A DNA stretch of 64,000 bases from Nitrospinales bacterium (GTDB taxonomy: Bacteria; Nitrospinota; Nitrospinia; Nitrospinales; VA-1). Both the position numbers and the translations under genes were made by a program. Under the pieces are notes generated by a model. It was not told the DNA's origin, did no database searches, and saw only the letters and a program-made list of their open reading frames with translations. Shown piece after piece: positions 11,628-62,922 of this stretch; the first letter of the stretch is position 1; each line of letters opens with the position of its first letter. The stretch lies in NCBI GenBank assembly GCA_965262115.1, contig OZ253496.1, positions 1,056,001-1,120,000 on the forward strand. The letters run 5' to 3'.

Positions 11628-12875
11628 GTGCAAATTCAACCAGGAACAAAGAACCAAATCATAAATCAAGAACGGATTGCCCAACAGGAATTTAGGTCAG
11701 AAAAAAATTGCAATACGGGTCAGAAAAAAACAGCCCTGATTTATTGCGAAAATCAATTTGGACTGGTGGACGGAAAAACCGCAGCAGCGTTAGTCCGCCA
11801 CTCTGAAATCTATACCATTGTTGGGGTTATTGATAGCTCATTAACGGGAAAAGATGCAGGAGAGGAGCTGGGAGAGGAGAAGAGTGGGATTCCGATTTTT
11901 TCTAATTTAGACGATGCCTTGGAGAAACTTTCCAACATTCCTGATTTCTATATTTACGGAAAAGCTCCCTTAGAGACCTACATCCCAAATAATGAGAGGC
12001 TCATGATCTTGGAGGCCATGGAAAAAGGAATGGACATCATTAGCGGTCTACACCAGTTTTTCTCAGAAGACCCAGAGTTTGCTCAAGTAGCTGTCCTGAA
12101 CGGCATCCAAATTAAGGACATTAGAAAACCCCCTCTTTTAAAAGATTTGCACCTTTTTACAGGTCAAATATCTGAAGTAACTGTTCCCGTAATAGCTGTA
12201 TTGGGGACCGATTGTGCTTGCGGAAAAATGACCACGGCAGTGGAACTCAATAAAACGCTAAATAATCTCGGAATAAAATCAGTACTCGTCGCAACAGGAC
12301 AAACCAGCTTGATGCAAGGAGCAAGATATGGAGTATCGACAGATGCCCTTATTTCCCAGTTCGTGGTGGGTGAAGTAGAAAACTCTGTTGTTCAGGCATT
12401 TAAAAACGAAAGTCCCGACATCATATTAGTGGAGGGACAAGGTGCCATCAGTCACCCCGCTTTCATGAGTTCTCTCGGTATCCTGAAAGGAAGCATGCCG
12501 GATGGAATTATCCTTCAACACCCTCCCGCTAGAAAGTTCCGGTGCGATTTTCCTCGATTGGCAATGCCTTCTGCTGAAAGCGAAATCAAACTGATCGAAG
12601 CGATCGCAAAAACCAAGGTGATGGCGATAACTTTAAGCCATGAAGATATGGATGACCATGGGATTCTGAAGGTAATAGAAGATTATGAAAAGAAGCTTCA
12701 ATTGCCAACAACAGATGTTTTGAACTACGGGTGCCAAAAACTTGTTCAAGCGTTAAGCAAGAATTTTCCAAAGCTGAAATATAAAATCGCGCGAGAAAAC
12801 TATAAATTCTTCATAAATGGAAAAGTACAAGTGGGCAGGCATCTGAAAGATAAAAATGAAATCGTCCATGCCTAG
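11628..12875 (+). CDS. DUF1611 domain protein (DgcN-like, P-loop-like fold)
   Basis: DGKTAAALVR, GTDCACGKMTT, ATGQT, VEGQGAISHP motifs. Confidence 0.85.
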   Translation: MQIQPGTKNQIINQERIAQQEFRSEKNCNTGQKKTALIYCENQFGLVDGKTAAALVRHSEIYTIVGVIDSSLTGKDAGEELGEEKSGIPIFSNLDDALEKLSNIPDFYIYGKAPLETYIPNNERLMILEAMEKGMDIISGLHQFFSEDPEFAQVAVLNGIQIKDIRKPPLLKDLHLFTGQISEVTVPVIAVLGTDCACGKMTTAVELNKTLNNLGIKSVLVATGQTSLMQGARYGVSTDALISQFVVGEVENSVVQAFKNESPDIILVEGQGAISHPAFMSSLGILKGSMPDGIILQHPPARKFRCDFPRLAMPSAESEIKLIEAIAKTKVMAITLSHEDMDDHGILKVIEDYEKKLQLPTTDVLNYGCQKLVQALSKNFPKLKYKIARENYKFFINGKVQVGRHLKDKNEIVHA

Positions 12876-13941
12876 AGTCGAAATTTCTCTATCCCAAATA
12901 CGAGAAAACACAAAAAAACTATCTGAGTTATATATGCAAAAGGGCATTTCCTTAATGGGAGTGACTAAAGCGGTACTTGGAGAGCCTTCCATAGCCAAAG
13001 CAATGATTCAAGGTGGAGTCAAATTTATTGCGGACTCGCGTATTGAAAATATTCAAAAAATGAAAAGTGCAGGAATATTAACTCAATTTGTTCTTTTGCG
13101 CACACCCTTGAGCCAGGCTGAATCTATCGTCAAAAATGCGGACATTAGTTTAAATACTGAGATCGAGACTCTTAAAAACCTTTCCTATCATGCGAAAGAT
13201 CAGAATAAAATTCATCAGGTAATCATTATGGTTGAGTTAGGCGATCTACGTGAAGGGATACTTCCTTATGATCTACCTCAATTTATCAGGGAAACCCTTT
13301 CGATGCCCCATATAAAAATAATTGGCATTGGCTGCAATTTTGCTTGCTACGGGGGAATTAAACCTGATGATAAAAACATGCGAGAACTCTCCGAATTGGT
13401 TGATTTATTAGAAAAAGAGTTTCACATTGATCTGGAAATTATTTCAGGGGGAAATTCAGCAAATTTTGAGTGGTTCAAATCTTCTCAGGACGTTGGTAGG
13501 GTTAATAATCTACGCTTGGGTGAATCAATTCTTTTAGGTTGCGAAACTGTAGGTCGAAAAGTAATTCCGGGTTTGCATACGGGCGCATTTCAACTTATTG
13601 CTGAAGTTATCGAGTCTAAGAGAAAGGCATCTGTTCCACTTGGAGAAATTTGTCAAGATGCTTTTGGCAATGTTCCTGGCTTTCTGGATCGAGGTGATCA
13701 TCAAAGAGTGATAATTGCTTTAGGCAGGCAGGACGTTCAAGTATCCAACTTGAAATCTAATAATAACCTAAAAATAATAGGTTCTAGTAGTGATCATATT
13801 ATTCTCGATGGAGAGAATCACAATCTGGAGGTCGGAGATGAAATAAGGTTTAGTTTGGATTATGGCGGTCTTCTCGCAACAATGACTTCTCCTTTTGTCA
13901 TTAAGCAATTCACAGATAGCAATGCCCACGTGGCGGCCTAA
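12856..13941 (+). CDS. Alanine/ornithine racemase-family PLP-dependent enzyme
   Basis: GVTKA (PLP Lys), ADSRIEN, GDLREG, SGGNS, LRLGE, QDAFG, SSDH; overlaps the DUF1611 gene. Confidence 0.85.
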   Translation: MKSSMPRVEISLSQIRENTKKLSELYMQKGISLMGVTKAVLGEPSIAKAMIQGGVKFIADSRIENIQKMKSAGILTQFVLLRTPLSQAESIVKNADISLNTEIETLKNLSYHAKDQNKIHQVIIMVELGDLREGILPYDLPQFIRETLSMPHIKIIGIGCNFACYGGIKPDDKNMRELSELVDLLEKEFHIDLEIISGGNSANFEWFKSSQDVGRVNNLRLGESILLGCETVGRKVIPGLHTGAFQLIAEVIESKRKASVPLGEICQDAFGNVPGFLDRGDHQRVIIALGRQDVQVSNLKSNNNLKIIGSSSDHIILDGENHNLEVGDEIRFSLDYGGLLATMTSPFVIKQFTDSNAHVAA

Positions 13942-46420: not shown

Positions 46421-47251
46421 TCAACCTTCTTTCTGTTCAGCCGGCTTCAGTTCCTTCCACTGAGTATCCTCACTTGAGGAGGCTGGCCCGGCTGAGGAAA
46501 ATACATAAACCATCCCCACCATGACTCCCCCACCCACCATATTTCCGAGTGTCACAAACACCTGATTGTGAAAGAAACCTGTAAGTGATACTTCCGCTCC
46601 ATGCGGCAGCAACAATGCCAGGCTCATCAGCGACTGGTTGGCGATACTGTGTTCGTATCCACTACCAATAAAAGCAAACAGGCACCAGAATATCATGATC
46701 AGTTTGGCAGTCTCGTCCCCGTTTCGGTTGGCGATCCAGACCGCCAGACACACCAGCCAGTTACACAAAATACCCCTGAAAAAAGCTTCTTGCGCACCGA
46801 GGGCCATTTTCGCTCCTGCTACTTTGACAATCAGGGCCTGAGCTTCGGCAGACAGGCTTCCCCCCTGCACCACCAGCCACGCAAAAAATACAGAACCCAG
46901 AAGATTACCGATAAAACATAGCGCGAACAATTTGAATATGGCGTTGAAACCTACCCGGTTTTTCAGTTTACCCACGGCAAAAACCATGTTATTGCCAGTG
47001 AACAGTTCCGAACCGGAAAAAACAACCAGGCTCAAAGCCACACCAAAACTAGCACCCATGATCAGTTTCATGAAGGGTGCAAACTGCGTTCCCGCCAAGG
47101 GAGCCCCTACCGAGAAAATTAAAACAATGCCAAAGCCTAGATAGGCCCCAGCCAGGGCAGACAGAGCCAGGTATCCCGGAGGGAAACGGTTCATGGCCTT
47201 GATTTTCTTTTCTGCGGCAAAAGCCAGTTTTCCTAAATCATTTTCGAACAT
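46421..47251 (-). CDS. nirC: Formate/nitrite transporter (NirC-like)
   Basis: GSELFTGNN, GILCNWLVCLAVW, EHSIAN, VTLGNMVGG; directly downstream of nirA. Confidence 0.88.
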   Translation of the reverse strand: MFENDLGKLAFAAEKKIKAMNRFPPGYLALSALAGAYLGFGIVLIFSVGAPLAGTQFAPFMKLIMGASFGVALSLVVFSGSELFTGNNMVFAVGKLKNRVGFNAIFKLFALCFIGNLLGSVFFAWLVVQGGSLSAEAQALIVKVAGAKMALGAQEAFFRGILCNWLVCLAVWIANRNGDETAKLIMIFWCLFAFIGSGYEHSIANQSLMSLALLLPHGAEVSLTGFFHNQVFVTLGNMVGGGVMVGMVYVFSSAGPASSSEDTQWKELKPAEQKEG

Positions 47252-47279
47252 TTCAGGTTTCCTTTCTATCAGTCAATTT

Positions 47280-48872
47280 CTAATGCGTGGTTTTTATTTC
47301 TTCCAGCACATTAGTTTCTGTTTGCTTTTGCGGTTTCGTTAGCAAAGGCGTGTCACGTCTTCTTGCATATTTTTTTCCCTTGATCGGGTACATTCTTTCG
47401 CGAGTGTGGTAGGGAACCACGAATTCCAAAACCTGTGCCAACTGATCACAGGGAACATCTTCCATGACCTTTACGGACAGTTTGGGATCAATTCCCGTTC
47501 GGCCGCCCATAAAAATATCCACCCCCTCAATCACTTCATTGCCGCGGCGCATCTTTTTTCCGAGCAGTCCAATATCCGCCACCAGATGGTTGCCGCATCC
47601 CGCCGGGCATCCCGACCAATGCATATTGATCGGTGCGGTGCCCGGGAGCTTGCCTTCAAGTTGCGCGGCAACCTTTAAAGCCATCGACTTGGTTTCAATT
47701 ACCGCCAAGTTGCAATAATCGCTTCCCACACAACTCACCAATCCCTTAAGAATACTGGAAGGGTGATAAGTGAACTCTTTGACCAACGCCTCTTCAAGCA
47801 TGTCCCCCAATTTCTGATCGGAAATATTGGGAATGATCAGGGAATTGGAATGGGAAAATCGTATTTCTCCGTTTCCATATTTTTCCGCAAGTCGGGCCAG
47901 CCCCTGCAACTTGTCAGCCTGAATACGTCCGACGGGAACCTTCAGCCCGACATAGTTCATCAAGGTCTGCTTCTGCCGGTAGGAACCAATATGTTCCGAT
48001 TTTTCGTTGCCTCTCAAATCCACGCCAGCGGAGGTCAACGGCCTTCCCAGCCTCTCTTCCAACGCCAAACGGAATTTCTCTTCCCCCCAATCTTCTATCA
48101 GAAAGGCCAGACGGTTTTTACTTCTCACATCTCGACTGCCGTGGTCGCGGTACAAAAGGATCAGCGCCGAACACACTTCGACCACTTCTTCGGGACGGAG
48201 GAAAACATCCAAAGGAGTGGCGATGCGGTAGCCCCCCGACCCCAACTTTCCACCCACCAGAACATTGAAACCATAAACCGGGCCGTTTTCTTCAATGGCC
48301 GGTACCAGCGCCAGGTCCTGGGTTTCCGCATGCACACAGTCATCCGGGCAACCACTCAATGTTATGTTGAACTTTCTTGGCAGATTGGAAAACTCCGGGT
48401 TGCCGACGATATGCTCGTTCAATGCCTTGACCAGCGAATAGGCATCGACCTTCTCCTTCGGATTCAAACCTGCTACCGGACATCCCATAATGTTGCGGAC
48501 ATTGTCCATTCCGGTTTGGGACGAGGTCAGTCCTACCTCTTCGAGCAGGTCGAAAACCTTGGGAATGCTTTCAATTTTTAGATGCCGTAATTGCACCTGT
48601 TGGCGGGTGGTGATGTCAATCATCCCATTACCGAAGGTAGCGGCTATAAACGAAAGAGCCCTGACCTGATGAGAAAAAGAAAGTCCATTAGGAATCCTCA
48701 CCCGCAACATAAAAAATCCTGGAGTGGGATTGCGCAAAAACAGTCCATACCATTTGAGACGCTGGATGTCCTCTTCGCTGATAGACTCCCAACCTTCTTT
48801 CGCAAAACGATGGAGTTCGCTTTTGATTTTCAAACCGTCTCTTTCAGATTTTATCAGTTCTATTTTGTTCAT
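47280..48872 (-). CDS. nirA: Ferredoxin--nitrite reductase (assimilatory, siroheme/4Fe-4S)
   Basis: MLRVRIPNG, TTRQQVQ, DNVRN, LPRKFN, CVGSDYC, SGCPAGC, ADIG. Confidence 0.9.
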   Translation of the reverse strand: MNKIELIKSERDGLKIKSELHRFAKEGWESISEEDIQRLKWYGLFLRNPTPGFFMLRVRIPNGLSFSHQVRALSFIAATFGNGMIDITTRQQVQLRHLKIESIPKVFDLLEEVGLTSSQTGMDNVRNIMGCPVAGLNPKEKVDAYSLVKALNEHIVGNPEFSNLPRKFNITLSGCPDDCVHAETQDLALVPAIEENGPVYGFNVLVGGKLGSGGYRIATPLDVFLRPEEVVEVCSALILLYRDHGSRDVRSKNRLAFLIEDWGEEKFRLALEERLGRPLTSAGVDLRGNEKSEHIGSYRQKQTLMNYVGLKVPVGRIQADKLQGLARLAEKYGNGEIRFSHSNSLIIPNISDQKLGDMLEEALVKEFTYHPSSILKGLVSCVGSDYCNLAVIETKSMALKVAAQLEGKLPGTAPINMHWSGCPAGCGNHLVADIGLLGKKMRRGNEVIEGVDIFMGGRTGIDPKLSVKVMEDVPCDQLAQVLEFVVPYHTRERMYPIKGKKYARRRDTPLLTKPQKQTETNVLEEIKTTH

Positions 48873-54439: not shown

Positions 54440-55498
54440 GTGAATAACCGCTCCAAAATTCTTCAAGACGTTCAAAACTATTACGGAAAAATTCTTAAAA
54501 CCAAAAATGACCTTCAGACCAGCGCCTGTTGTGCGGCAGACACCATGCCTGCCTACCTGCGTCCTTACCTGAAAAATATACATGCGGAAGTGCAATCCAG
54601 GTTTTATGGTTGCGCTTCCACGTTCCCTTCAAGCCTTCGTGGAAAAACCGTAGTGGATCTCGGTTGCGGTTCCGGACGCGATTGCTACTTGCTGGCTCAG
54701 TTAGTAGGCCCTGATGGCATGGTCATCGGCATCGACATGACCGATGAACAACTGGCGGTTGCAAGAAAACATATTGATTTTCATACGCAAAACTTTAACA
54801 TGGAAAAACCTAACGTCGATTTTCGCAAAGGCTGGATTGAAGACCTCACTTCGGCAAACTTGGAGGACAATTCCGTAGATGTAATTATCTCCAACTGCGT
54901 GATCAACCTGTCTCCCGATAAGGAAAGTGTATTTCGTGAAATTTTCCGGGTTCTCAAACCCGGCGGAGAGCTGTATCTTTCAGACATTTTTTCCGGACGA
55001 CGGGTGCCGGAACCCTTGACCACGGACCCGATTTTACTCGGCGAATGCCTAGGCGGTGCCCTATACATGGAAGACTTCAGGCGTATGTTGAGAAACGCAG
55101 GTTCTCTTGATTACCGGGTGGTTTCCAAAAATCCGCTCACTCTCAACAACGAGGACATCCAGCGCAAGGTCGGCATGATCGATTTTTTTTCCATGACCGT
55201 GCGTAGCTTTAAATGCGAGTTCGAAGACATTTGCGAAAACTTCGGCCATGTCACCTACTATAAAGGCAGCATTCCCGAATTCCCGCACGGGTTCACCCTT
55301 GATGACCATCATTATTTTCAGACCGGAATTCCCGTACCGGTTTGCGGCAATACCAGCAAGATGCTGAGTGAAACCCGGTTCGGCGAGCATTTTAATGTCG
55401 TTGGAGATTTCTCCACCCACTACGGACCTTTTGACTGCAATACACCCCAACCTCAAGAAGGCATCTCCTCCGCCAACGGCAACGGTGCCTGCTGGTAA
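54440..55498 (+). CDS. Arsenite methyltransferase-like (ArsM/AS3MT family)
   Basis: YYG...LQTSACC, FYGC, DLGCGSGRD, GIDMT, SNCVINLSPDK, GECLGGALY, VCGNT. Confidence 0.85.
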   Translation: MNNRSKILQDVQNYYGKILKTKNDLQTSACCAADTMPAYLRPYLKNIHAEVQSRFYGCASTFPSSLRGKTVVDLGCGSGRDCYLLAQLVGPDGMVIGIDMTDEQLAVARKHIDFHTQNFNMEKPNVDFRKGWIEDLTSANLEDNSVDVIISNCVINLSPDKESVFREIFRVLKPGGELYLSDIFSGRRVPEPLTTDPILLGECLGGALYMEDFRRMLRNAGSLDYRVVSKNPLTLNNEDIQRKVGMIDFFSMTVRSFKCEFEDICENFGHVTYYKGSIPEFPHGFTLDDHHYFQTGIPVPVCGNTSKMLSETRFGEHFNVVGDFSTHYGPFDCNTPQPQEGISSANGNGACW

Positions 55499-56329: not shown

Positions 56330-57175
56330 TCAAATTCTTCGGACAAAATAATGGTGCACCATTAAAGTTAAAAAATATTGAACAGCCATAACCCAGGCAA
56401 AAGAGACCAAACTGGTTGAAAGGATTCCAAGAACAGCGAACAGGGCAAGCAGAAAAAGTGGGAGGTCAAGCCCATTCCAACGCCAAAGCAGCAGCAGGAT
56501 TTTTATTTTCTCGTAGCAGGCTTGGCGTTGCTCAAAGGTCAAGTCCGGTTGCAGGTCTTGATCCCGAGCTTCCACAAGACGCAAAAAACTCCATTGGCCC
56601 CGAAAAAATAATTGCTGCGCCTGCATATAATAAAAATAAAGCACCCGCACCCCCGACATTTTAGTCCGAAGCTTTTGGCGGGTATTTTGAATTTCTCGTT
56701 CCATACCATCATAGCCATGTAATAGTAAGGTGACCAGACTCTGCTTGCAATAATCGTAAGAAATGGCCCGCACAATAATCAGTCCCGCAATGATTTTCAG
56801 GACTTGTCCGTGTTCTGGAAAACCTTTGATGAGCCCAACCACCACTGCAAGGTAGGCAAAATAACCGGCGATGCCATCAATCAACCTGCCCCATTCGCTG
56901 GCCATGCCCTTGGCCCTGGCCAACTGCCCGTCTACGCAATCCAGCACCAAAGTGACTTCCAGTAAAATTCCTCCCAGAATCATGGATGCCGGACTGGCAA
57001 AGCTGAATGCGTAACCGGAAGCAAACCCCACCAGAACAGAAAAATAAGTCACCTGATTTGGGGTCACTGGAGTGTCCTTCAAAAAAGCCACAATCTGCTT
57101 CGCAATCGGATCTTGAATATAACGATTGACCGGCTCCACCATATCTACGGGTGCGCGGCTCGATGTATCACTCAC
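56330..57175 (-). CDS. CDP-alcohol phosphatidyltransferase family protein
   Basis: VTPNQVT, LDCVDGQLAR...GRLIDGIAG; the last Asp of the family motif appears to be Gly. Confidence 0.88.
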   Translation of the reverse strand: MSDTSSRAPVDMVEPVNRYIQDPIAKQIVAFLKDTPVTPNQVTYFSVLVGFASGYAFSFASPASMILGGILLEVTLVLDCVDGQLARAKGMASEWGRLIDGIAGYFAYLAVVVGLIKGFPEHGQVLKIIAGLIIVRAISYDYCKQSLVTLLLHGYDGMEREIQNTRQKLRTKMSGVRVLYFYYMQAQQLFFRGQWSFLRLVEARDQDLQPDLTFEQRQACYEKIKILLLLWRWNGLDLPLFLLALFAVLGILSTSLVSFAWVMAVQYFLTLMVHHYFVRRI

Positions 57176-57178
57176 ATC

Positions 57179-58186
57179 CTATAACCATTTTTCCTGTTGA
57201 TACCAGTTGATCGTCTCGGTCAGTCCTCGATTCAATTCATACTGAGGTTCAAAGTCAAACGCTTTAAAAAACTTTGCCGGTGACGCAGACCATGAACTTT
57301 GCCGGATATCAATCATCCTCTGCCGATCAAACAACGCGGGCTTGGAACTGAAGCAAGCCAAAACCTCAAAGAACAAAGCTACCGGAATCAACATCCCTTC
57401 AGGAATTTTCAGGATTTTCATCCTAACATTCATAATACGTGCACACTCTTTTGCGACCTGTTCCCAGGCATGAACATGGCCGTCTGTAACAAAATAGCTA
57501 CGGCCTGCCTGTTTGGAGGGGTGGCAAGCTTGGAGCATTGCCTGAACCAGATCGGCAACATAAATCAGAGAAAGTTCTTTGCCCGCCCGGCCAATCTGCA
57601 GCCCCCATCCTTTCTGGATCAATTTGATGAAAGTAAAAAAGTTTTCTTCCCGGGGACCATACACCACCGGAGGGCGTATAACGGTAACAGGCAGTGACCC
57701 CGAGTACTGCAAAGCAATTTCTTCCCCCCCAAGTTTTGATTGCCCGTAAAAAGTCACAGGCTTGCAAGGGGTGGTTTCATCAACGAGATTGCCCTGGGTG
57801 CTGGGGCCAGTTGCCGCCAGACTGCTAAGATGAATAATGCTTTTGATCCGGCCTCCACGCTTCTGGCATTGCTCATACAAGTTTGAGCAGGCAGTGGCAT
57901 TAACTTGAAAATAGCCGGAACGGGATTTTGCCTTGGTCAGTCCTGCACAGTGGAAAATGTAGTCCAACTCTTCCAAAGGGGGGATTACAAAATCCGGTCG
58001 CGCCAGATCCACCCTGTGAAGATGAACCCTCGAAGCATCCAGCCATTTGAGGTCAGAGGATTCCCTCACCAGTCCATGAACCGTGCAACCAGAGGCCAAA
58101 AGCTGGTCTACCAGATGACTGCCGATGAAACCATTCGCGCCCGTAACCAGAGCCGTGGCCCCTTTAAGATGTGATGAGGCGTTCAT
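57179..58186 (-). CDS. Extended SDR / NAD-dependent reductase, putative ceramide reductase (CerR-like)
   Basis: VTGANGFIG, HCAGLTKA, SSLAA, YGQSK (YxxxK), RPPVVYGP; operon context. Confidence 0.75.
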   Translation of the reverse strand: MNASSHLKGATALVTGANGFIGSHLVDQLLASGCTVHGLVRESSDLKWLDASRVHLHRVDLARPDFVIPPLEELDYIFHCAGLTKAKSRSGYFQVNATACSNLYEQCQKRGGRIKSIIHLSSLAATGPSTQGNLVDETTPCKPVTFYGQSKLGGEEIALQYSGSLPVTVIRPPVVYGPREENFFTFIKLIQKGWGLQIGRAGKELSLIYVADLVQAMLQACHPSKQAGRSYFVTDGHVHAWEQVAKECARIMNVRMKILKIPEGMLIPVALFFEVLACFSSKPALFDRQRMIDIRQSSWSASPAKFFKAFDFEPQYELNRGLTETINWYQQEKWL

Positions 58187-59285
58187 AGATGCGATGTCTT
58201 TTATAAATAGTTCCCCCTATCCGGTACATCGGTTCGAGAATGCCTTTGTTATCCTCCAGCAACCAGGATATCTCACACCATTTAATCTTTTTTTCCAGAG
58301 ACAACCTGTAGATTTCGTAATAAAGCCAGGCATCAATTCCCAGCCTGCGGTATTTTTTCTTCACACCCAGCGTCAGCACCCGAAAAACATCAATTTTATT
58401 TTTCTTCCATAAGAACCAAGCCCAGCCAAAGGGAAACAGGCTTCCATCCATTCCCTTAAGCACTTGATTGACATCGGGAAGGGCCAGGGAAAAACCCGCC
58501 GGTTCGCCCTTTACTTCGGCAATCAAGCAAAATTCAGGATGTATGAAGGATTTCATTTCCCTTGCAGAAAATTCAAATTCTTTTTGAGTCATAGGAACGA
58601 ATCCCCAATTCAGACCCCACGCCGAGTTGTAGATATCCCAAAGAATGGAAATTTCTTTATCAAATCGGCTGAGATCCAAACATCTGACGGTGAAGCGATT
58701 CCTTTGTTTCAACTTTTTCGCGGCGCGCTCCAGATAATCCGGAACCTTAACAAAGTCCAGCCGTAACGCTAAAAGATCTTTGGCCTTTTGCAAACCCCAC
58801 GCCTCAAAATGTTTCCCATAATATTCTGGGTTATAGGGGATGCCAAACATGGTGGGAGAGTCAAACCCCTCTATCAGCAAGCCGCACTCATGGTTCGTCG
58901 ACAAGTTCATCGGCCCCATAAGACGGGCATGTCCTCTTTCCTGACACCATTGATAAGCCTTGTCCAGTAAAAGCCGGGAGAGACTCGGGTCATCCCCCGA
59001 CTCAAACATGCCAAACATGCCGACAGACTCTGAGTGAAGATCCTGATAGTTCCGATCATGAACCAGAGCGATCCTCCCTACCGGTGACTGGTTGTCATCC
59101 ACCGCCAGAAAAAGATCGTCTTCCGCATGTTCGAAAAACGGGTTGATGTCGGGATTCAGGAATGTTTTACGTTCCCGGATAAGAGGAGGAGTCCAGCATG
59201 GCTGGTCTTTATAAATTTTCCAGGGAAGGCGGACGAACCGATCCAAGTCCTGTCGGGTTTCAACCTTTACGAGTTTAAAACCCAT
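58164..59285 (-). CDS. Tandem-GNAT protein, putative bacterial ceramide synthase (bCerS-like)
   Basis: NPFFEH, VGRIA, FGMFES, GLLIEGF, PYNPEYY, AWGLNWGFVP, LPDVN, SWLLEDN; 2 bp downstream of the Spt-like gene. Confidence 0.78.
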   Translation of the reverse strand: MGFKLVKVETRQDLDRFVRLPWKIYKDQPCWTPPLIRERKTFLNPDINPFFEHAEDDLFLAVDDNQSPVGRIALVHDRNYQDLHSESVGMFGMFESGDDPSLSRLLLDKAYQWCQERGHARLMGPMNLSTNHECGLLIEGFDSPTMFGIPYNPEYYGKHFEAWGLQKAKDLLALRLDFVKVPDYLERAAKKLKQRNRFTVRCLDLSRFDKEISILWDIYNSAWGLNWGFVPMTQKEFEFSAREMKSFIHPEFCLIAEVKGEPAGFSLALPDVNQVLKGMDGSLFPFGWAWFLWKKNKIDVFRVLTLGVKKKYRRLGIDAWLYYEIYRLSLEKKIKWCEISWLLEDNKGILEPMYRIGGTIYKRHRIYERLITS

Positions 59286-59287
59286 TA

Positions 59288-60619
59288 TTACCTGGGGATG
59301 ATGCCGAGCTTTGTCCCCAGTTTCCTGAATGAACCAAGGACTTTGTCAAGATCCGTTTGGTCATGGGCAGAGGTATAGCTGGTCCGGATCATGGCATTGA
59401 GGGGTGGCACGACCGGCGACACCGCGACTCCGGCAAAAACACCGTCATCAAAAAGGAGCCTGTTCAAATAAAGTGTGAGGGCCTCTTCTCCTATTTTTAT
59501 GGGGACTATAGGAATAGAATTGTTAGTCACCTGAAAACCCATATCAAAAAAACCTCTTTTTATATAAGCGGTATTTTCCTGCAACTTTTTGATGCGTTCC
59601 GGCTCATTGATCATGATATCCAGACCCATAATGACCCCAGCAACCGATGCAGGCGGCAGGGCCGCAGTAAAAATAAACGCCGAGGCTTTATGGCGAATGA
59701 ACTCGGTGATCTTGGACTTTGCGGAAATAAATCCACCGATGGACCCCAGGCTTTTGGAAAACGTTCCCATATAAATATCTATTTCGTCTTCCAGATTGTA
59801 GTAGTTGGCGACACCCCTGCCACTTTCACCCATGACACCCAGGCCGTGAGCTTCATCAACCATGACGTTGGCCCCGTAGTCTTTTGCGAGTTTCACAATA
59901 GCTGGAAGGTTGGCAATATCACCGCTCATACTGAATATACTGTCGGTAATAATTATCTTGCCTTCAACATCCGAATATTCTTTTAAATAATATTCCAGAT
60001 GATCCATATCATTATGCTGATAGCGGACGGTCTTTCCCGGTGCCACCCCACACCCTTCATAGATACTGGCATGGTTTTCCCGATCCGAAAAAGCTACATC
60101 CTTTCTCCTCAGGAGACAAGCAATAGTTCCCTGATTTGCCTGGAATCCCGTGGACATGACAATGGTATCTTCTCGGCTCAAGAAAGAGGAAAGCTCCTTT
60201 TCCAGAGTCTTATGCAGATTGAAAGTACCATTGAGAAAACGGCTACCAGTACAACCGATGCCAAATTTTTCCAATGCCTCCCGAGCCGCTGAAATCACGC
60301 GAGGTTCCTGGGCCAGCCCGAGATAATTATTGGTAGAAACGGAAATGACTTGCTTCCCGTCAATGACAACATGGCATCCATCAATTTCCTGGATTTCCCT
60401 GAAATACGGATAAATCCCCAGCTCCTTGGCCTGCTCCGGGGCAAAGTAGCCAAAGCATTTTTCCAGAATCCCTTTTTCTTTACTGTTGGGAGGGCGCAGG
60501 TGGGAATTTTCAAAATCAAACTTCTTTTTCAATAAAGAGGTGATTTTACTCTTCTTTAAATGAGCAGGTTCTTCGTCGTCACTTTCAAGTTCATTGAGCA
60601 GGGTAAAAGGTTTTGTCAT
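59288..60619 (-). CDS. Alpha-oxoamine synthase, putative serine palmitoyltransferase
   Basis: YPYFR, NNYLGL, GCTGSRFLNGT, NHASI, DEAH, GTFSKS (PLP Lys), FIFTAALPP; ~50-aa N-terminal extension. Confidence 0.8.
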   Translation of the reverse strand: MTKPFTLLNELESDDEEPAHLKKSKITSLLKKKFDFENSHLRPPNSKEKGILEKCFGYFAPEQAKELGIYPYFREIQEIDGCHVVIDGKQVISVSTNNYLGLAQEPRVISAAREALEKFGIGCTGSRFLNGTFNLHKTLEKELSSFLSREDTIVMSTGFQANQGTIACLLRRKDVAFSDRENHASIYEGCGVAPGKTVRYQHNDMDHLEYYLKEYSDVEGKIIITDSIFSMSGDIANLPAIVKLAKDYGANVMVDEAHGLGVMGESGRGVANYYNLEDEIDIYMGTFSKSLGSIGGFISAKSKITEFIRHKASAFIFTAALPPASVAGVIMGLDIMINEPERIKKLQENTAYIKRGFFDMGFQVTNNSIPIVPIKIGEEALTLYLNRLLFDDGVFAGVAVSPVVPPLNAMIRTSYTSAHDQTDLDKVLGSFRKLGTKLGIIPR

Positions 60620-60669
60620 AAGTTTCTCACCAGAAATTTATAAAAAAATTTAAACCATGATCTATAGTT

Positions 60670-61725
60670 TCAGACGGCGGCATGCTTCCACAATTGATTC
60701 AGCGCTGGAAGCAATCCCCAGCAAACGGTTTGACCGTATAAGGAGTTCTCGCCCTGATCCCGAATCAGTCGGCGATGCGCCTCTCCCAATGCGTGATAAG
60801 GCAGATCGGGAAACAGGTGATGCGTCGCATGAAAGCGAAGACCCACTGGCGCCCATAAAGGAGTCATCCATCTATTCCCGGGGATATTGACCGAGTCCAG
60901 CATTTGACTTGGGTAGCTCATCGCATTTTCCTTGGGGTTTTGATAGCGGTGAGCCCCCAAGGTTCTGATGGAATTAATCATAAAAATCAACGCTCCAACA
61001 CAGTACCACAGGAACAGGGTCATCGCAGGAATAATTTTTGCCAGGATGGCCCCCAAAAATGCCCAGGCAAAAAGACACGCCAAAAACTCCTGGATTTTCC
61101 AACCTTCCATATTCTTCCAGGAAGACTCCGGCCGCCGATAATCCAGATCGATAACCAGCGCTGACATCCTGGCCATCAGGAATGATCTCAGCCTTTTATT
61201 GACCAAAGATAATGGAGTTAAAACGGAAAAACGCGCTAAAAATAAAATCGGAACCAAAAAAGAAAAAAGAACATGAATGACAATCCATCTTCTTCCTTTT
61301 AAAGCGAAGGGAAAATATTCCCCATCTTTTTCAGTTCCATAAAAATTCTGTTTATGGTGATCTAAGTGAACGAACTGATAAAGAAAAACGGGAACCATAA
61401 GAGGGAAACCACAAAGTATATTCCAGACCCAACTGAACATCTTGAAGGCGCCCTTTTTGAAATGAACAATTTCATGGATGAATAAAACCGCCCGATACAA
61501 AGCCAGGCAGGAGAGAGTCACAAAAAGAATTTGCCGGGAAGAAAAAACCGGAGCCATGAAGGCAAGAACAAAAGCACCCCACCCAAGAATGGCGCTAAAC
61601 AAAAAATCCAACCAGTAAATAATGGGATTAGGCCGAAAGAGATCTTTCACCAGTTCTCTTGCCCTGCCCATCGGGAAACTTTCTCGCTCCTGCTGTAAAT
61701 TTTCATGGGCCTGTTGAGTCAACAC
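60670..61725 (-). CDS. Membrane fatty-acid desaturase family protein
   Basis: His boxes HEIVH, HLDHH and FHATHH; hydrophobic segments. Confidence 0.88.
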   Translation of the reverse strand: MLTQQAHENLQQERESFPMGRARELVKDLFRPNPIIYWLDFLFSAILGWGAFVLAFMAPVFSSRQILFVTLSCLALYRAVLFIHEIVHFKKGAFKMFSWVWNILCGFPLMVPVFLYQFVHLDHHKQNFYGTEKDGEYFPFALKGRRWIVIHVLFSFLVPILFLARFSVLTPLSLVNKRLRSFLMARMSALVIDLDYRRPESSWKNMEGWKIQEFLACLFAWAFLGAILAKIIPAMTLFLWYCVGALIFMINSIRTLGAHRYQNPKENAMSYPSQMLDSVNIPGNRWMTPLWAPVGLRFHATHHLFPDLPYHALGEAHRRLIRDQGENSLYGQTVCWGLLPALNQLWKHAAV

Positions 61726-61752: not shown

Positions 61753-62106
61753 CTAATTTTTTTCCGCGCAGGATACGCACAGAACATTTTCCGGCATGAG
61801 CATGATACGTCCTTCTGGAATCGGGTTGGCACAACGGGCGCAGATTCCAAAATCCGGCAAGTCCACCTTGCTCAGAGCTTTTTCAAGCTTAAGCAGCTTG
61901 GACTTCGACGAATTCAACGAAGCCTCGCTTATGCCCTGACTGCCGAGTGCCTCCATTCGAGTGAGACGGCCTATGGCGTTGTCCGGAGCAACTGGCTTGG
62001 AGGTTAGGGTGAAAGTTTCTATCAGGTGCTTTTGCACCTCGATCTCCTCAACGATTTTCTTTTTAAGTTCCGCTCTACCTTCATCATCCATACACGATCC
62101 TACCAT
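61753..62106 (-). CDS. TraR/DksA C4-type zinc-finger protein
   Basis: PDNAIGRLTRMEA, FGICARC...IPEGR...CVSC. Confidence 0.88.
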   Translation of the reverse strand: MVGSCMDDEGRAELKKKIVEEIEVQKHLIETFTLTSKPVAPDNAIGRLTRMEALGSQGISEASLNSSKSKLLKLEKALSKVDLPDFGICARCANPIPEGRIMLMPENVLCVSCAEKN

Positions 62107-62124: not shown

Positions 62125-62922
62125 CTATTTTGAGGCAGGAACAAATCCGGACATCGCGCATCTCTGCGCCAACAAGGGAGTGAAACGGTCAGTATCCTGG
62201 GAAAGCTCTTCCATAAACTCATTAGCCAGATTCTGGTCTTCAAAGCATTCATAAATATCATCCAGAAATCCGCCGCGCAAAAGCGGATGTTCGAGGAAAT
62301 CCCGTCCGGACCGGGTAAAAATTTCCAACGGCCATTCGGTCACCTCGACCTGCTCCAGACCCAGTTCCTCCAGCCATTGTTTTGCCTGATTGGCGGAAGG
62401 ACGTTCCTCTATATACTCCGCCAAGGATTTTCGTTCCTTGACCAGGTTTCCTCGTTTCATCTCCTCGTCCACGAGGTTCCATAAAGAGTCAAAGTTTCCC
62501 AGCGAGGGAAACGTCAGCACAATTTGTCCACCTGGCTTTAAGAATCGGACCAGATTGCTGAGAGCCTCAAAACGATTCGGGCGAAAAAACATGAAAGAGA
62601 GGTTGCCGGTGATGCAGTTAAAATTGGGAAGTATCGGGGGCAAAAAACGCATGTCCCCCACCTCAAACTGCAACCAGGGCAGATGCTGGCCTTGAATTGA
62701 CCGGGAACGAAGCACCTGGGACTGATGGATATCAATAGCCAGAACGCTTCCTTGAGGTCCTACCTGTTCCGCCAGATGAAACGCCGGGATCCCTCCCCCG
62801 GCAGCGATGTCCAGCACCGAGTCACCCGGATTTAACTGCAGTTTATGCATTAACAGTTGTGCAAAAGGGGTGGACCAGGGGTCGTTTTCAGGCAAAGGCC
62901 AGGATGGGGTCATGAGATTCAC
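62125..62922 (-). CDS. Class I SAM-dependent methyltransferase
   Basis: VLDIAAGGG, VLAID, GDM, LKPGGQ. Confidence 0.85.
   Translation of the reverse strand: MNLMTPSWPLPENDPWSTPFAQLLMHKLQLNPGDSVLDIAAGGGIPAFHLAEQVGPQGSVLAIDIHQSQVLRSRSIQGQHLPWLQFEVGDMRFLPPILPNFNCITGNLSFMFFRPNRFEALSNLVRFLKPGGQIVLTFPSLGNFDSLWNLVDEEMKRGNLVKERKSLAEYIEERPSANQAKQWLEELGLEQVEVTEWPLEIFTRSGRDFLEHPLLRGGFLDDIYECFEDQNLANEFMEELSQDTDRFTPLLAQRCAMSGFVPASK

Follow-up and report, generated by a model that had tools for sequence, protein, structure and literature searches.

Does a Nitrospinota bacterium make sphingolipids, and if so, of which kind? The question is raised by five genes of a Nitrospinales bacterium (assembly GCA_965262115.1; single-contig genome OZ253496.1, here C1; 2.68 Mb, 94% complete), which lie on the minus strand at positions 56330-61725 of the window, that is, the whole 64,000-nucleotide stretch analysed (C1:1056001-1120000). 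In the order of transcription they encode P0001 (60670-61725; 351 aa), a membrane di-iron enzyme of the desaturase fold (Pfam FA_desaturase, PF00487); P0002 (59288-60619; 443 aa), a predicted serine palmitoyltransferase (SPT) of Bacteroidota-like type (Aminotran_1_2); P0003 (58164-59285; 373 aa), an N-acyltransferase of the bCerS/YghO family (Acetyltransf_1, weak, E 1.4e-4); P0004 (57179-58186; 335 aa), a CerR-like extended short-chain dehydrogenase/reductase (SDR; Epimerase); and P0005 (56330-57175; 281 aa), a CDP-alcohol phosphotransferase and candidate head-group transferase (CDP-OH_P_transf, PF01066). The closest homologues carry the labels Nitrospina sp., Nitrospinaceae or Nitrospinota. 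An initial annotation had described these genes as an apparently complete sphingolipid operon. All five open reading frames (ORFs), their common strand, their tight spacing (intergenic gaps of 50, 2, -23 and 3 bp) and the motifs it had pointed out (GCTGSRFLNGT and GTFSKS, PYNPEYY, SSLAA and YxxxK, the last as YGQSK) were found again, and the sphingolipid assignment is supported for the core Spt, GNAT and SDR enzymes; "complete" goes too far, since a co-inherited MmpL-type transporter is encoded elsewhere. The GC content of the operon (0.45-0.48) is the same as that of the window, and promoter and terminator scans of the locus gave signals no better than shuffled sequence. We propose that the operon would make a phosphosphingolipid, a hydroxylated, phosphate-headed ceramide membrane lipid, and put the probability of this reading at roughly 0.85; from the genes, their order, their family placement and their co-distribution, we infer every reaction described below.

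The top match of P0002 in the PDB is the SPT of Sphingobacterium multivorum (3A2B/8GUH; 361 bits), followed by structures of Kbl/BioF type (292 bits), Kbl (269), cysteate acyltransferase (216) and ALAS (187). In a quick IQ-TREE run on 35 rows, P0002 and six Nitrospinota orthologues share a clade (SH-aLRT 100) with the Spt of Escherichia coli BL21, which has been tested biochemically (PMC9386255), and with two Bacteroidales SPTs and one from Sphingomonas, which exceed their own NCBIfam cut-offs. Rows of the Kbl, BioF and ALAS-like kinds fall outside this clade; the initial annotation had named a grouping with such enzymes as refuting its Spt assignment, and P0002 stands apart from BioF, Kbl and HemA. 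A gap-free alignment with the PDB sequence shows 18 of the 21 active-site residues named in PMC10196870 to be identical in P0002, in which GTFSKS is also present. A second, BioF-like gene is located elsewhere in the genome. P0002 is thus a predicted serine palmitoyltransferase.

For the two following steps, the orthologues from E. coli BL21 and Sphingomonas served as references in place of Caulobacter's own proteins; BL21 yghO and ECD_02852 are reported as the orthologues of Caulobacter CC_1154 and CC_1164 (PMC9386255). Among the 13,733 ORFs of the genome searched with the BL21 queries, P0003 is the sole match of YghO (37% identity over the full length, E 1.5e-77), and this search agrees with the proposed orthology of the GNAT to bCerS; no solved structure is related to P0003 by sequence. 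The BL21 reductase ECD_02852 finds P0004 as its best match (24% identity, E 1e-23; runner-up 5e-11), as do all five proteins in the CerR position, namely that of BL21 and four from plasmid records (21-26%, E 5e-22 to 7e-28), in keeping with the CerR-like function first proposed for the SDR. In a tree, P0004 clusters (support 88) with the CerR references and with the SDR neighbours of spt genes from other phyla; 12 further SDRs of the genome branch separately. Its Rossmann motif starts at residue 16; the CerR of Caulobacter is reportedly periplasmic. A dihydroceramide backbone is very probably the product of these three core enzymes.

The clustering itself argues in the same direction. Matches to P0003 occur in 74 of 120 Nitrospinota genomes, 67 of them of the operon type (at least 46% identity) and seven with a distant paralogue only. 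We read 38 loci of relatives, of which 31 carry the operon and seven the distant GNAT paralogue. Because the order Spt-GNAT-SDR-CDP is identical in 31/31 operon loci, one of them cut inside the SDR gene by a contig end, the arrangement is not due to chance; synteny across relatives extends to the four-gene core. The operon GNAT was not found in 15 of the 30 Nitrospinota genera searched, including g4 (0/4) and g7 (0/5).

Several points weigh against these core assignments. P0002 reaches 450.9 bits on NF047600 (SerpalmtaseCFB), the top of 11 NCBIfam models, for which the cut-off is 640; with a score below 640 it is not assignable to that equivalog. The identity of P0004 to the CerR references is just 21-26%, with a tree support of 88, and its top NCBIfam model is HpnA, below cut-off; on sequence, the CerR-like protein is the weakest of the three core assignments. 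The co-distribution counts, moreover, come from kin genomes, hence they are not independent.

Some further loci touch on this distribution. Six loci of Nitrospinaceae genera g14, g15, g16 and g18 (L256, L257, L258, L260, L267 and L271), and also L039, carry a second, distant bCerS-family gene (about 36-40% identity), which adjoins a highly reducing polyketide synthase of about 2570 aa (KS-AT-DH-MT-ER-KR-ACP), often with a CDP-alcohol transferase; in genus g15, this copy is the only one. The paralogue may possibly belong to a polyketide-fed sphingolipid route. One record titled Nitrospirales (L110) has a Nitrospinota-type operon that groups with genus g19, by mislabelling or transfer. Plasmids of the Gram-positive Streptomyces (L073) and Rubrobacter (L074) carry spt-gnat-sdr in the same order, and a Priestia plasmid (L231) carries an SPT-clade gene alone.

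What is done to the backbone depends on P0001, which very probably acts on a sphingolipid. Its histidine boxes HEIVH, HLDHH and HATHH are invariant; it is 40% identical to the product of a gene adjoining bCerS in Sphingomonas parapaucimobilis, and another homologue lies in a cluster of cerS and head-group genes on a Diaphorobacter plasmid. Either spt or cerS lies no more than 8 kb from the di-iron gene in 13 of the 80 related loci, six of these outside Nitrospinota-type operons; locus L118 was excluded from this count, its synthase match being Kbl. Of the remaining 67 loci, 50 were searched genome-wide (17 Nitrosomonas-type loci were left out), and bCerS is present in 48 of these 50 genomes. 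In a sample of 201 Alphaproteobacteria, bCerS occurs in 33 and the di-iron family in nine, all within the 33; after removal of three genomes already sampled, the figures are 6/6 against 30/198 for bCerS. The di-iron family is almost confined to genomes with bCerS. The family is found in 12 of 151 Caulobacterales and in 43 of 120 Nitrospinota genomes, where it forms a single clade in four genera of one family. An earlier count that had limited the gene to one genus (18/22, and 0/18 in others) was overturned by these figures.

As to the reaction, we rather favour P0001 as a ceramide N-acyl hydroxylase resembling CCNA_00202, because the Caulobacter-like counterpart is found at the site where the gene of that enzyme would be expected. 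In two Caulobacter-like genomes, a cpaL-like gene and an OmpA gene are directly followed by the di-iron gene, which lies three genes from the cpaL-like one (in G434, a short extra ORF follows the latter); in C. crescentus, cpaL is annotated as CCNA_00199 and CC_0201 as an outer membrane protein; PMC11324152 reports CCNA_00202 as the enzyme that hydroxylates the amide-linked acyl chain. The two Caulobacter-like proteins have P0001 as their only match in the genome (38% over the full length, E 2e-72). The initial annotation had left open whether the lipid is desaturated or hydroxylated; on this positional evidence hydroxylation is favoured and desaturation becomes less likely.

The best-surviving alternative keeps the same backbone and takes P0001 for a genuine desaturase, such as a delta-4 enzyme giving a sphingosine-type ceramide, or for a long-chain-base C4 hydroxylase. 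P0001 has HxxxH/HxxHH/HxxHH boxes, of the pattern of eukaryotic DEGS enzymes, and switches between desaturase and hydroxylase by few residues are known in the superfamily. The Lipid_DES domain (PF08557) occurs on 13% of the members of one neighbouring Atlas cluster, although P0001 itself has no PF08557 match. Two further points speak for this alternative or against our hydroxylase: the link to CCNA_00202 is positional, at 38% identity and with the two proteins in different subclades, and the sphingolipids of Sphingomonas paucimobilis are described in PMC9246714 as solely non-hydroxylated, S. parapaucimobilis carrying the di-iron family beside bCerS. No solved structure is related to P0001 by sequence, and its predicted model (pLDDT 88.6) has no fold match at E <=0.001, the weak ones including AlkB; neither a desaturase nor a hydroxylase is mentioned in PMC11789144 and PMC13318209. 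With the Caulobacter-like homologue in the place expected for a reported amide-acyl hydroxylase, we consider a desaturase or C4 hydroxylase unlikely and retain the N-acyl hydroxylase.

Two observations concern the surroundings of such genes. A gene of the phosphocholine-cytidylyltransferase family, like that of the Roseomonas sphingolipid cluster, adjoins the di-iron gene in L111 and in about 20 further loci of Nitrosomonadaceae type. In L038 (3035-3883), from a carrier without the di-iron family, an unrelated FA_hydroxylase gene (PF04116) adjoins MmpL and is a possible functional substitute for the di-iron enzyme.

The last gene of the operon bears on the head group, and we consider it likely that P0005 adds one to the ceramide. 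Its DxxDGxxAR motif is intact and invariant in eight orthologues, and the CDP gene directly follows the SDR gene in 30 of the 31 operon loci, the remaining one being cut by a contig end. P0005 is also the best genome match of three Bacteroidales CDP-alcohol transferases, if a weak one (E 1e-14 to 1e-17), and for two of these the cluster has been proposed to serve a Kennedy-type, kinase-free inositol sphingolipid synthesis (PMC9246714). On the other side, the genome has seven CDP-alcohol phosphotransferase matches, and no characterised protein is closely related to P0005 (best PDB E 3.5e-12). It is conceivable that the ceramide stays neutral and that P0005 is a mere passenger, making a glycerophospholipid or a soluble phosphodiester: it scores highest, though under cut-off throughout, on models of archaetidylinositol-phosphate and PIP synthases; three ceramide kinase queries found no match in the genome and none in the operon, with no family-level search run; and the operon holds no cytidylyltransferase or other nucleotidyltransferase. 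However, the CDP gene is kept immediately behind the SDR gene across four families, and the Bacteroidales transferases point, weakly, to P0005, so that we hold a neutral ceramide to be distinctly improbable. For a phosphate-headed ceramide, the sequences suggest direct transfer from a CDP-alcohol as the simplest reading.

Inositol as a general head group is ruled out by its distribution. Two inositol-phosphate synthases are encoded in the genome, as are IPCT-like proteins: the synthase loci at C1:2198860-2202614 and C1:835166-839845 (L099 and L100) contain IPCT/DIPPS-like and CDP-alcohol transferase genes, the second with a short synthase frame of 241 aa, and presumably serve a pathway distinct from that of the operon, for an inositol lipid or solute. 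The synthase family is present in 63 of 120 Nitrospinota genomes, yet four operon carriers with single-contig genomes (G024, G037 and G048, 96-97% complete, and G023, 86%) gave no match to it.

It is very improbable that the synthase takes another amino acid (alanine, glycine or cysteate) to give 1-deoxy-ceramides or a capnine-type sulfonolipid: P0002 is under the curated SPT cut-off, has Thr in place of Ala79 of the S. multivorum SPT, and belongs to a group in which bacterial enzymes are reported to accept other amino acids (PMC10196870, PMC11334938), but cysteate acyltransferase scores 216 bits to the 361 of SPT, and by established chemistry a head-group transferase requires the C1 hydroxyl that serine supplies.

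For export, the candidate is an MmpL/HpnN-like protein of about 800 aa. Its gene comes after the CDP gene in 13 of the 31 operon loci, where it closes the operon, and lies ahead of the di-iron gene in two. In the present genome, the orthologue, an RND protein 65% identical to the operon-linked MmpL, is encoded outside the window at C1:2286768-2289164. MmpL occurs in 66 of 120 Nitrospinota genomes, 63 of them common to the 67 with the operon GNAT, and in none of the genera without the operon; the seven discordant genomes are 61-83% complete. The overlap was counted by hand from two tables, whose kin genomes are no independent samples. Besides lpxC, the genome has a single LptF and a single LptG. 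We regard the MmpL-type protein, on its sequence and distribution, as somewhat more probably the ceramide-lipid exporter than otherwise. The idea of MmpL export is not new; the phylum-wide co-distribution is.

The acyl donor would be acyl-CoA or a housekeeping acyl-ACP (acyl-AcpP), because the genome lacks a specialised AcpR/AasR pair. In line with the first reading of the locus, no acyl carrier protein (ACP) or acyl-ACP synthetase gene is among the neighbouring ORFs (ORF list and Pfam). The genome has just two ACPs, neither of them AcpR-like in context: one lies in the fab operon, the other in a cluster of a ketosynthase and CrtI-like genes. AasR queries reach FadD-like proteins at 23% identity. 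The latter cluster (L102; C1:1523726-1530729) comprises a ketosynthase, an ACP, two phytoene-desaturase-like oxidoreductases and two SDRs, and presumably resembles the ladderane-associated clusters of anammox bacteria and deltaproteobacteria.

Based on these placements, we propose the following hypothetical pathway, in which (i) Spt (P0002) would condense L-serine with a fatty acyl thioester; (ii) the bCerS-type GNAT (P0003) would N-acylate the product; (iii) the CerR-type SDR (P0004) would reduce the 3-keto group, acylation before reduction being the model of PMC11087976, where a competing model is also noted; (iv) the di-iron enzyme (P0001) would hydroxylate the amide-linked acyl chain; (v) P0005 would move a phospho-alcohol onto the C1 hydroxyl of the ceramide; and (vi) the MmpL/HpnN-like RND protein would transport the lipid through the inner membrane.

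With the pathway of Caulobacter crescentus (Spt CC_1162, bCerS CC_1154, CerR CC_1164 and hydroxylase CCNA_00202) and the BL21(DE3) locus ECD_02850-02854, the operon shares the three core enzyme families, a clustered CDP-alcohol transferase and, probably, a CCNA_00202-like di-iron enzyme. In contrast to Caulobacter, the genome is without an AcpR/AasR pair, a ceramide kinase match (three queries) and a second LptF/LptG pair; its Spt lies outside the rhodobacterial subclade of the SPT tree, the operon itself contains the hydroxylase-like gene, and the ceramide kinase and cytidylyltransferase of the CPG/CPG2 head-group pathway are missing from it. The nearest solved relative of P0002 is of Bacteroidota type (S. 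multivorum), and the ACP-free gene context is likewise shared with that phylum, where, however, the genes are reported to be scattered (PMC11334938) and not joined in one operon. P0005 weakly resembles the CDP-alcohol transferase of the alternative Bacteroidales inositol-lipid cluster (PMC9246714), whereas the inositol-phosphate synthase is missing from the four operon carriers named above. Myxococcus xanthus has a single lptFG pair and an MmpL gene downstream of spt, for which a role in export by an alternative route has been suggested (bioRxiv 10.64898/2026.04.12.717747); the present genome resembles it in having a candidate MmpL exporter with a single pair, and here the link is supported by phylum-wide co-distribution.

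Upstream of the operon and in the same direction lie genes for a SAM methyltransferase (62125-62922, minus strand) and a DksA/TraR-type zinc finger protein (61753-62106, minus strand), with gaps of 18 and 27 bp. They may be on the operon transcript, and the pair is conserved upstream only in genera g1 and g20. Elsewhere in the window are a NirC-like transporter gene with a ferredoxin-nitrite reductase gene (46421-48872), a DgcN-like acetyltransferase gene with an ornithine-racemase-like gene (11628-13941), and an arsenite-methyltransferase-like gene (54440-55498).

In summary, enzymes of known kinds make up the core, the accessory set is unusual, and the phylum is one for which our literature searches gave no report: as the initial annotation had supposed, they returned nothing on sphingolipids in Nitrospina or Nitrospinota, though supplementary lists of earlier surveys might include the phylum. 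The core pathway limits the surprise, Spt-like genes being predicted in 40 phyla in PMC11334938, in whose main text the string "Nitrosp" does not occur. The operon offers candidates for kinase-free head-group attachment and for export where an organism has just one lptFG pair, which has been raised as a question (bioRxiv 10.64898/2026.04.12.717747). In this genome, a 1174-codon molybdoenzyme frame is consistent with NxrA but below cut-off, and nitrite oxidation is not established. Nitrospinota are the main marine nitrite oxidisers, and Nitrospinaceae a family of nitrite oxidisers. A conserved Nitrospinota sphingolipid, if true, would be a candidate source of the ceramides of the marine lipidome and a possible biomarker. 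Only tentatively do we extend this to the idea that most Nitrospinaceae, among them abundant nitrite oxidisers not yet cultured, have a hydroxylated phosphoceramide specific to their lineage, its undescribed head group attached directly from a CDP-alcohol without a ceramide kinase and the lipid exported by a dedicated MmpL-type protein; if true, bacterial sphingolipids would have a second route of export, and nitrite oxidation a lipid biomarker.

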